Shown here one piece after another: positions 5,259 through 23,023 of a stretch of 32,000 nt of DNA. Within the stretch, counting starts at the first letter, position 1. Every line of letters starts with the position of its first letter. The stretch spans positions 1 through 32,000 of the forward strand of contig JAWOFX010000148.1 of assembly GCA_046497275.1 (NCBI GenBank), written 5' to 3'. This DNA is from Promethearchaeia archaeon. GTDB taxonomy: Archaea > Asgardarchaeota > Lokiarchaeia > Sigyniarchaeales > SOKP01. The position numbers were made by a program, and so were the translations under genes. The notes below the pieces were generated by a model. It was not told the DNA's origin and made no database searches. It saw only the letters and a program-made list of their open reading frames with translations.

Positions 5259-5351
5259 TATTTTTATTTTTTTTCTTTAATTTAAAATTCTAATAAATAG
5301 AGTTTGGCGTATTCTTTAACTAAAGTAAAAAAATTTTTAATGTACAAATAA

Positions 5352-5364
5352 TTTAAATATATAA
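5352..5364 (+). promoter_or_regulatory. Probable TATA box of tRNA-Thr
   Basis: TTTAAATATATAA about 21-33 nt upstream of tRNA position 1. The AT-rich background lowers specificity. Confidence 0.4.
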
Positions 5365-5384
5365 CTAAAATTTGCGCTATTTTT

Positions 5385-5487
5385 GCCTCTGTAGCTCAGT
5401 CGGTAGAGCGTTGCCTTGGTATTCGTTGGAATTGCTCCAAATAAACACACAGGCAAAGGTTCGCGGGATCATAACCCGCCAGAGGCT
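5385..5487 (+). tRNA. tRNA-Thr(GGT) with 29-nt intron at 37/38 (5422..5450); atypical T-loop
   Basis: Acceptor GCCTCTG/CAGAGGC, D-stem GCTC/GAGC, anticodon stem TTGCC/GGCAA with loop TT-GGT-A|A, T-stem GCGGG/CCCGC, discriminator T, no encoded CCA. Confidence 0.85.
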
Positions 5488-5671
5488 TCCTATATTATAT
5501 TAGTAATAGTGAATTAGAATATTCTCAAAAAAAGTTATTAATAGAAACAAATTCTTTTCAATCTACTGAAGTAAAAACAAAAAGTTAATAAATTTTTAAA
5601 ATTTGAAAAATTTAAGGTTATTACCAGAGTTTTAACATATTTTATTTAAGACTCGTCCTTGTCAATATTCA

Positions 5672-5802
5672 GCCGATGTAGCTTAGTTGGTCATAAAACC
5701 AATATTGGTTTGACTTCAGCGCCAGACTCATAATCCTTCTGAAAAAAATGGGTCAGACTGGATGTATTCTGGAGGTCGTGGGTTCATATCCCACCATCGG
5801 CA
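5672..5802 (+). tRNA. tRNA-Met(CAT), probably elongator, with two introns (22/23: 5695..5717; anticodon loop: 34 nt, 5734..5767 or 5733..5766)
   Basis: Acceptor GCCGATG/CATCGGC, anticodon stem CCAGA/TCTGG with CT-CAT-A, variable loop AGGTC, T-stem GTGGG/CCCAC, discriminator A. The G1-C2-C3 start is typical of archaeal elongator Met rather than Ile2. Confidence 0.88.
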
Positions 5803-20812: not shown

Positions 20813-23023
20813 ATGTCTGAGAAGAAAGTAATCACCGCAAATAGCATAGTGGAATTATTTGGAAAAGGAACCAAGCTTTATGTAAAAATCTCAGAAAATA
20901 TTCATAATCAAATAGAAAATAATAAAAAATTATTTCATAAGAAACTTGGAATCTGGAAAAAAATATTTCACCCAATTTATGAAACAAAATCTGATAAAGA
21001 GTTATTTTTAGACCATTTAATTTACTCAAACATATTATATGTGATTCTTCTCATTAGAATATCGAAAAAAAATCATATTCAATTTAAAAAAATCTATAAT
21101 CAATATAAAACAAAAGATTTTGAGATAATATCTGATCAAATAATAGATTTATTCAAATGGATAAAAATTCAAGAGAATATTTTTAAAGAAATATATGATA
21201 TAATTGTTGATACTCATTTAGGGTCGGAAGATTTGTTTCACTCACTTTATCAACAGATTTTTCAATCTTCTATCAGGCATCTCGCTGGTGAGTTTTACAC
21301 TCCTTCAAAATTAGTTGAAAAAATGGTGAGCGATACCTATAAATTTGGGAAAAAAGTGTTAGATCCATCGTGTGGTTCAGGTAATTTTCTTATGGAGATT
21401 ATTTCAAGAATAATCAAATCAGAGAAACCAATTAATTCTAAATATGAAGCACTAAACAATCTTTTTGGGTTCGACATTAATCCATTAGCAATTTACACAT
21501 TAAAGATAAATGTAATTTTGATTCTTCATGAAAATTTCTCGGACATTAATCTTAATAAATTTGATTTGAATTTTTATGTGCTTGATTCTCTCTTCCCAGA
21601 AAATTCTCGAAAAGATCCTAATCTCAGATTAAAAAATATTTACAATTCATTTGATTTAATTATCGGAAACCCTCCTTGGTTAACATATAAGGATATCTAT
21701 GATAAAGCATATCAGAAGAATATAAGAAAATTGGCCGATACTCTTAATATTAAACCCAAAAGTCAATATATTACCCATATTGAATTAGCCACAATTTTTT
21801 TTTATGCTATTCCAAAAAAATTTTCAAAAATTAATGGCATTATCTTTTTTGTGATCACTAAAAGTGTTATAAATGGAGATCATTGCAGGAAGTTCAGATC
21901 ATTTAAATTTTTCAATAATCTTGAAATATGGGATTTTCCCGATGATTATAACTTCAATGTGAATCATGTTTGCATAAAAGCTAAATATATAGGAGAGAAA
22001 AAGGAACCTATTCAAGAAAAATATCCGATTTTAACCAAAATTTTTGATGCTGCATTAAATCTTAAGGAAGAGTTGCTATATTCATCCCTAAAATTAGAAG
22101 AAGATGGTGCATTACTACTATTACCTCAAAAAGATTTAGATCATTTATCAAATTTTAAATATAGTAGATATAAAGATAAATTTTATCAAGGTGCGACACT
22201 GGTTCCTAGACCATTAATATTTTTCCAAGTCACTGAAAAAAAAGATAATATTCTTATCATTTCTTCGAGTAAAGATATTCTTTCACGGTCAAAAAATAAG
22301 TGGAGATTTGAATTTAAAAATAAGAAAATTGAAGAAAATTTTAGATATAAAACATTTCTTAACAAAGATCTAGTACCTTTTTTCTTGAAAAGAGAGCGAG
22401 ATGTATTTCTACCCATTGATCTAACTGATTTTGATTTTAAAATTAATTATTTACAAAAATTTCCACAAGCTTTCACATTTTATAAGGAAATGAATGAGAT
22501 TTATAAATCTCGCAAAAAAGCCACAAGTGATATAAACACTTTATTTTCTAATTTGAATTATTGGAATAAATTAACCAAGCAAAAAAAAACAGAGCCATAT
22601 CTGGTAATATATAATGCCAGTGGCTCCTATTTGAAATCAGCTGTGATCGAGCAATTTGAAAAAAAAATTATTGTTGGTTCTGAAAATTATTATTATGCCA
22701 CTGACCAAAAAAATGAAGCTTATTATCTTACCGCTATTTTAAACAGTCCTATCTTAACTAAGTATATCAAAATGATTAAGAGCTCACGGCATATTCATAA
22801 ACGCCCATTCTCTTTTCCAATTCCAATTTATGATAATAAAAATGAATCGCATTATAAGCTTGCTCATAAAGGAAAAAAATATACTTCTTATGCCCACGAT
22901 ATTGTCTATAATAATCCAAAAATTACTCCGCGAAAAATAAGAATGATTTTAAATCAGAATTTAAAAAAATTAGATCCTATAGCCAGAAATGTGCTTTTTA
23001 ATCAGAAAATTCATAAAGAATAA
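20813..23023 (+). CDS. N6-adenine DNA methyltransferase with target-recognition domain (type IIG-like, nuclease domain apparently absent)
   Basis: GEFYTP, VLDPSCGSGNF (motif I), GFDINP, DLIIGNPPW (motif IV); about 350-aa C-terminal TRD-like region. Confidence 0.88.
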   Translation: MSEKKVITANSIVELFGKGTKLYVKISENIHNQIENNKKLFHKKLGIWKKIFHPIYETKSDKELFLDHLIYSNILYVILLIRISKKNHIQFKKIYNQYKTKDFEIISDQIIDLFKWIKIQENIFKEIYDIIVDTHLGSEDLFHSLYQQIFQSSIRHLAGEFYTPSKLVEKMVSDTYKFGKKVLDPSCGSGNFLMEIISRIIKSEKPINSKYEALNNLFGFDINPLAIYTLKINVILILHENFSDINLNKFDLNFYVLDSLFPENSRKDPNLRLKNIYNSFDLIIGNPPWLTYKDIYDKAYQKNIRKLADTLNIKPKSQYITHIELATIFFYAIPKKFSKINGIIFFVITKSVINGDHCRKFRSFKFFNNLEIWDFPDDYNFNVNHVCIKAKYIGEKKEPIQEKYPILTKIFDAALNLKEELLYSSLKLEEDGALLLLPQKDLDHLSNFKYSRYKDKFYQGATLVPRPLIFFQVTEKKDNILIISSSKDILSRSKNKWRFEFKNKKIEENFRYKTFLNKDLVPFFLKRERDVFLPIDLTDFDFKINYLQKFPQAFTFYKEMNEIYKSRKKATSDINTLFSNLNYWNKLTKQKKTEPYLVIYNASGSYLKSAVIEQFEKKIIVGSENYYYATDQKNEAYYLTAILNSPILTKYIKMIKSSRHIHKRPFSFPIPIYDNKNESHYKLAHKGKKYTSYAHDIVYNNPKITPRKIRMILNQNLKKLDPIARNVLFNQKIHKE

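Follow-up and report, generated by a model that had tools for sequence, protein, structure and literature searches.

The canonical T-loop reads U54-Psi55-C56-R57-A58-N59-Y60, and its trans Watson-Crick/Hoogsteen U54-A58 pair stacks on G53-C61 (PMC7912444). The pair is treated as conserved, with the A54-A58 of the eukaryotic initiator as a special case, and m1A58 and a modified U54 are the standard stabilisers of the tRNA elbow (PMC7912444). Eukaryotic tRNA-Ala has been added to the A54-A58 cases, and its unusual pairs are stated to be absent from bacterial and archaeal tRNAs (PMC7566577). We found no description of A54-U58, A54-T58 or U58 in a tRNA in the literature searched, the coverage of which was incomplete. 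U54/A58 is a conserved-residue rule for tRNAs and does not decide whether a molecule is one. Zagryadskaya, Doyon and Steinberg (Nucleic Acids Res 2003) are said to have selected randomised T-loops in vivo, with 54-58 as the most constrained part and a few other combinations able to mimic the pair. The alternatives selected were reportedly G54-A58 and G54-G58, not A54-U58. Few parts of the tRNA elbow are treated as fixed, and U54-A58 is among them (PMC7912444); here a cellular lineage appears to keep it reversed in a seemingly indispensable tRNA. This lineage is the closest archaeal kin of the eukaryotes, which have A54-A58 tRNAs of their own.

The window, by which we mean the whole 32,000-nucleotide stretch of DNA that was analysed, lies on contig C180 of a 3.85-Mb assembly in 188 contigs (98.9% estimated completeness, 4.4% contamination). 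It was searched with the full Rfam model RF00005 at its gathering threshold of 29 bits. There are two matches, both on the + strand and both covering model positions 1-71. The parts of the two genes are as follows.

5350..5365, + strand: TATA-like A/T-rich element AATTTAAATATATAAC, centre about 27 nt upstream of the Thr gene, read from the sequence
5385..5487, + strand: tRNA-Thr(GGU); RF00005 50.1 bits; cloverleaf minimum-energy fold z = -3.65
5422..5450, + strand: Thr intron of 29 nt after position 37, placed from the cloverleaf, junctions predicted
5468..5474, + strand: Thr T-loop ATCATAA with A54 at 5468 and U58 at 5472, from the Rfam model alignment (loop consensus UUCgAaU)
5636..5650, + strand: TATA-like A/T-rich element CATATTTTATTTAAG, centre about 27 nt upstream of the Met gene, read from the sequence
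5672..5802, + strand: tRNA-Met(CAU), elongator, with two introns; RF00005 48.8 bits; fold z = -3.35
5696..5718, + strand: Met D-arm intron of 23 nt at 22/23 or 23/24, an Rfam insertion of 25; orthologues without this intron have the D-arm GCTT..TAGC
5734..5767, + strand: Met intron of 34 nt just 3' of the anticodon loop, 38/39 to 40/41, from the Rfam alignment and sequence reading
5783..5789, + strand: Met T-loop TTCATAT with U54 at 5783 and U58 at 5787, from the same alignment and consensus

The Thr anticodon is at 5418-5420, the discriminator is U73 and CCA is not encoded. Met has its anticodon at 5729-5731 and A73 as discriminator. Each gene has a 7-bp acceptor stem, a D-arm, an anticodon arm and a 5-bp T-stem, and the computed cloverleaf folds of both precursors close this stem on a 7-nt T-loop. 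The D-stem of Met has three pairs plus U13-U22, as in the Met orthologues. Both tRNAs have U8, G18, G19, U33, G53-C61, U55 and C56. They depart from the rule at the near-invariant U54/A58, where the Rfam alignment gives A54/U58 for Thr and U54/U58 for Met; the reading in the earlier note of T58 in both genes, beside A54 in Thr and T54 in Met, is therefore confirmed. Met(CAU) is an elongator, with neither an A1-U72 pair nor three G-C pairs at the base of the anticodon stem; it has G1-C72 and the anticodon stem CCAGA/TCTGG, and the genome has a separate initiator and AUA decoder. The initiator on C34 has A1-T72 and the anticodon stem CAGGG/CCCTG. The TATA-like elements weakly suggest promoters for both genes in this 30% G+C genome. 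The variable loop of Thr(GGU) is apparently 6 nt (AGGTTC; window 5451-5467) in three genomes of genus g1, namely this one (G000), G004 (L030) and G005 (L034), and 5 nt (AGGTC) in the rest.

Neither cloverleaf is restored unless the introns are removed. The junction of the Met D-arm intron is ambiguous by one base because A stands on both sides, and the 34-nt intron, with TC repeated at either end, has no single junction that can be chosen. No strict bulge-helix-bulge (BHB) motif, the form of site cut by the archaeal splicing endonuclease EndA, could be drawn by hand at the predicted junctions, including a 3-4-3 motif that excises exactly 29 nt. In the computed fold of the Thr precursor the anticodon helix is extended and contains an internal loop of 7x7. 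ARAGORN at default settings finds no tRNA in the whole window because of the introns, and with introns allowed it finds only 19 genes genome-wide, several of them mis-called. Between their multiple introns and the TTCRA tuning of tRNA finders and covariance models, such genes are missed or mis-scored.

The elbow is otherwise like the canonical one. The loop is 7 nt on a 5-bp stem closed by G53-C61; U55, C56, R57 and the D-loop G18/G19 are kept, and Thr 54 and 58 are still complementary. It differs in that the Thr partners are exchanged to A54/U58, that Met of this genome is U/U, and that the m1A58 site is gone from both. In Thr the U54 that could become pseudouridine, m1-pseudouridine or m5U is missing too. 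The eukaryotic initiator tRNA-Met and tRNA-Ala(AGC) are similar in that these individual cytosolic tRNAs have a natural, conserved A in place of U54, in many cases together with a purine at 60 (PMC7566577, PMC7912444). Unlike the window tRNAs with their U58, however, the eukaryotic A54-A58 tRNAs keep A58 as m1A58 and have a longer purine-purine pair. Mitochondrial tRNAs with degenerate D- and T-loops (e.g. PMC2777451) likewise leave the U54/A58 rule, but their loops vary in size and lose the G18/G19/U55/C56 network.

The Thr-Met neighbourhood is syntenic in most genomes of family f1 (Promethearchaeota, Loki-type). Thr(GGT) could be read in 29 genomes. Positions 54/58 are A/T in 14 of them and T/A in the other 15, and no genome is mixed. 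The A/T state, with the loop ATC[AG]T.. in all 14 genomes, is found in all six genomes of g1 and all four of g3, as well as in g4, g12, g13 and one genome of g5, and the T/A state is found in the other genera. The 20 distinct Thr T-arm sequences split evenly at 54-58, with AU in 10, UA in 10 and none unpaired, and the T-stem cells are 100% paired. The covariation score of 54-58 is 0.383, against 0.108 in shuffles and at most 0.076 with the partners slid, though the co-variation may rest on very few events. Within the A/T class the stems vary, as do positions 57, 59 and 60 (AA, GC, GT, AG, AC), while 54 and 58 are fixed, so we argue that these two positions are held by selection.

The A/T-type Thr genes all share A9 and C13, whereas the T/A-type have U or G at 9 and U13. 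The A/T-type genes therefore look like one gene lineage. A quick single-gene tree of EF-2 puts most A/T-type genomes in one clade and two (G018, G028) elsewhere. Only the MVKVKNPE-type copy was used for this tree, since EF-2 has two paralogues. Taken together this suggests that the Thr swap arose one to three times, not many. The two EF-2 paralogues are seen in nearly all of the relatives G001-G060 (loci L218, L219, L224, L232, L238). Close to its 5' end, the matched stretch of the MVKVKNPE-type copy has one or two in-frame stops, in most cases TAG or TAA, in G008, G009, G010, G018, G028 and G031. It must be added that EF-2 of G049 (L208, C235), which belongs to family f2 and has 880 contigs, nests in g1 of f1 beside G005 (cf. 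L055 on C64 of G049). This MAG may be a mixture, and its 54/58 states are given little weight.

One can imagine another register for these loops, in which the purine at 59 acts as A58, U58 is bulged and there is no inverted pair. Every U58 loop seen does have a purine at 59 (12 distinct loops), and a U54-A59 pair is conceivable for the Met loop TTCATAT. However, 59 is mostly A in the canonical loops too, and the loop length is a constant 7 nt. A role for 59 also cannot explain why, across the 29 genomes, A54 in Thr goes with T58 every time and is never found without it. We consider a shifted register unlikely.

The elongator Met behaves differently from Thr. It could be read in 30 genomes, and its 54/58 states are as follows.

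C/A: 21 genomes, most of the family, loop CTC[AG]A..
C/T: 4 genomes (G005, G006, G019, G026), loop CTC[AG]TAT
T/T: 2 genomes (this genome and G002), with the identical loop TTCATAT
A/T: 3 genomes (G004, G009 and the possibly mixed G049), loop ATCAT..

Genus g1 alone holds four of these states. A54/T58 is also found in Met of another Asgard family (L251). In genus g21 of family f2, Met was read by eye as T54-C55-A58 (L334-L337), and an Rfam scan of these f2/g21 Met loci gave nothing at the gathering threshold. Conservation of 54-58 is clearly lacking in Met. Nor do Thr and Met change together: G001 combines Thr A54/U58 with Met C54/A58, and in G019 a Thr with U54/A58 stands beside a Met with C54/U58. 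A reversed Thr pair beside a Met that drifts through C/A, C/U, U/U and A/U provides a naturally occurring test of the purpose of the pair.

We argue that Thr(GGU) and Met(CAU) are probably functional, chromosomal, single-copy tRNAs of a Loki-type Asgard archaeon that bear introns and have inherited non-standard T-loops, with the pair inverted in Thr and relaxed in Met. Both genes would be expressed and their introns spliced out. In Thr the reverse-Hoogsteen U54-A58 would have been turned round to A54-U58, a state that has become fixed across several genera. Positions 54 and 58 would still have to form an A-U pair there, and would still do so in the flipped orientation. A flipped U-A pair is not strictly isosteric with the original. 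In Met, U54 would have been lost long ago, giving C54 in most of the family, after which 58 would toggle between A and U; this genome presently has U54/U58. The Met 54-58 pair would then be under relaxed constraint.

The rest of the tRNAs of this genome bear on how far the change extends. Custom scanners that start from the T-arm, the acceptor stem or the 5' half of the gene gave 44 credible tRNA genes, an incomplete list. In the whole-genome Rfam search 150 of 265 candidates were scored, with at least 29 matches. Position 58 is A in 42 of the 44 genes, whose loops start with TTCRA, ATCGA or GTCGA, and T58 is limited to the two genes in the window. A58 is kept even by the isoacceptor Thr(CGU) (C32), by the initiator Met (C34) and by tRNA-Ile(UAU) (C33). 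T54 is found in 38 of the 44. Among the protein genes of this genome are a homologue of GCD14/TrmI (C57:664-1188; 148.5 bits), Pus10 (C121:8774-10111; 468 bits) and a TrmY-like protein, which is weaker at 39.8 bits and still above the cut-off.

The earlier note had taken the same change in two genes as a sign of a lineage-wide redesign of the T-loop, possibly with loss or retargeting of TrmI, and had proposed tabulating position 58 in this genome and its relatives and looking for trmI, Pus10 and TrmY. All three enzymes are found, the last as a TrmY-like protein. The tabulation speaks against the redesign, since A58 is the rule in this genome, including Thr(CGU) and the initiator Met. Loss of TrmI is not supported, because 42 of the 44 genes keep A58 and the TrmI, Pus10 and TrmY-like genes are all present. 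Nor is it one change in two genes. The Thr and Met states vary independently among the relatives, and their agreement at 58 is a coincidence of this genome. What can be said for a redesign is that several further tRNAs of the family leave T-loop invariants: His and Ile(GAT) have A54/A58, Tyr has G54, Met has C54, and C55 is found in some genes for Thr, Ile and Met. A weaker form does hold, namely that this family tolerates odd bases at 54, 55 and 58 in several specific tRNAs. We regard the full redesign as distinctly improbable. The note was right that the change is real and heritable, and wrong on its scope and on TrmI. Its view that T58 is not random error also stands: T58 is conserved in orthologues of several genera, and Thr position 54 has changed reciprocally.

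With the enzymes present, it is worth considering what they could act on in the inherited non-standard loops. TrmI is the tRNA m1A58 methyltransferase, and in archaea it makes m1A57/58. Neither window tRNA has A58, so the mature Thr and Met tRNAs would not be able to receive m1A58. m1A57 is still possible, as A57 is present in both. The U54 on which Pus10 and TrmY act is absent from Thr, which has A54. Met has it in this genome, but in the majority of Met orthologues C54 stands in its place. Thr would not be able to receive pseudouridine-54 or m1-pseudouridine-54. The remaining tRNAs, about 42, would keep U54/A58 or A54/A58 together with the enzymes that modify them. The Thr and Met variants are substrates that should escape TrmI, Pus10 and TrmY.

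The window genes could instead be decaying pseudogenes or spares, with canonical copies at work elsewhere. Their T-loops are non-standard, and the variable loop of Thr is apparently 6 nt in three genomes. The assembly is also incomplete, and the custom scanners gave no credible gene for Thr(UGU); a few further tRNAs are likewise missing from the list. A second, canonical copy of Thr(GGU) or Met is conceivable because the scanners or the 188-contig assembly miss some genes. However, the window Thr is the sole Thr(GGT) gene found in the assembly, and the window Met is the sole CAT gene found apart from the initiator on C34. Their stems are intact, with compensatory changes among the orthologues and all cells paired. 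They keep G18, G19, U55, C56 and G53-C61, and their synteny is conserved across the family. We hold this explanation to be very unlikely. An error of sequencing or assembly, or noise from mixed strains in a MAG of 188 contigs with 4.4% estimated contamination, is refuted with near certainty because T58 is conserved in independently assembled genomes of other species and genera, in 14 Thr genes with A54 and in 9 Met genes.

Other tRNAs of this genome show where an inverted pair could have come from. The A54/A58 state of the eukaryotic tRNAs is itself found here, with a purine at 60, in tRNA-His(GTG) with the loop ATCGATA (C98:38882-38953; L011:1501-1572) and in tRNA-Ile(GAT) with the loop ATCGAAG (C1:12700-12773, minus strand; L007). 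tRNA-Tyr(GTA) has G54 in the loop GTCGAGA (C79:3780-3928). Among orthologues the count is 15 T54/A58 to 3 A54/A58 for His(GTG), and 13 to 10 for Ile(GAT). It is plausible that A54/A58 was a viable one-step intermediate towards A54/U58. The series of Met states is another possible route to the same end.

The distribution of the inverted pair was also examined outside the family. A pattern made of the Thr T-arm and acceptor end was searched in one genome per species across 185,579 species. It gave 88 matches, against about 50 expected by chance by our own estimate. Of these, 80 were examined and 14 lie in tRNA genes, at least 13 of them Thr(GGT) and the fourteenth with no anticodon call. The MAGs that hold these 14 all carry one of the labels Promethearchaeota/Promethearchaeia, Thorarchaeota, Hermodarchaeota and uncultured archaeon. 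None of the bacterial and other archaeal matches among the 80 has a tRNA fold. A shorter pattern, GGGATCRTNNCCC, was tried over 301 Asgard genomes, and its tallies were dropped, with a tRNA at only 1 of the 30 loci returned.

The Thr T-arm pattern also matches seven viral contigs (L339-L345, IMG/VR). All seven matches stand at the 3' end of a tRNA-Thr called by ARAGORN, so the inverted pair is also found in intact-looking tRNAs of an unrelated setting. These are tRNA-Thr(UGU or GGU) genes with the T-loop ATCRT. Four of them (L340, L341, L342, L344) sit inside phage tRNA arrays of 8 to 31 genes, and three of the seven are about 2 kb from a tmRNA gene. The loop is the same ATCRT.. as in the Asgard gene, but the phage tRNAs are accessory, bacterial-type and intron-less, whereas the window genes are chromosomal, archaeal and intron-bearing, and apparently the sole genes for their anticodons. 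We tentatively put forward a broader proposal, which we think possible and would not yet favour over its denial: that Loki-type Asgard archaea use A54-U58 as a working alternative elbow in essential single-copy tRNAs. Such an elbow, undescribed in the literature searched and otherwise recurring in phages, would be out of reach of modification as m1A58 or at U54, might also go unrecognised by other elbow-reading factors, and would have been reached through eukaryote-like A54-A58 intermediates that are still there in His and Ile.

Several smaller observations concern these and neighbouring tRNAs. C55 replaces the "universal" U55 in several Asgard tRNAs, in the loops TCCGAYT, ACCGAAT, TCCGAAG and TCCAA.., and it is kept within genera. 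The loci are L042 and L048 (Thr(GGT) of g8), L330-L332 (Ile(GAT) of f4, f6 and f7) and L334-L337 (elongator Met of f2/g21). C55 would remove the site of pseudouridine-55.

About 13 tRNA genes of this genome have an intron of some 30-47 nt inside the T-loop, at a constant site directly after TTCRA (58/59). The loci are C25:39448-39549, C32:2611-2714, C32 again at 21823-21925 of the minus-strand scan, C33:4545-4725, C34, C85:8694-8819, C122, C156, C158 and C172:75565-75699. A T-loop intron at 58/59 is also found in several Thr and Met orthologues. In G009 (L054) the neighbouring Thr and Met both read ATCATAG and then have a T-loop intron at the identical position. This likeness suggests an exchange of T-arms or introns between the adjoining genes.

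The gene at C33:4545-4725 is tRNA-Ile(UAU), which has two introns. AUA would be read by this tRNA, without a CAU/agmatidine tRNA. A bacterial-looking tRNA-Pro(TGG) that starts CGGGATATAGCTCAG is found at C106:359-432 on a contig of 1932 bases, and it is probably contamination of the bin.
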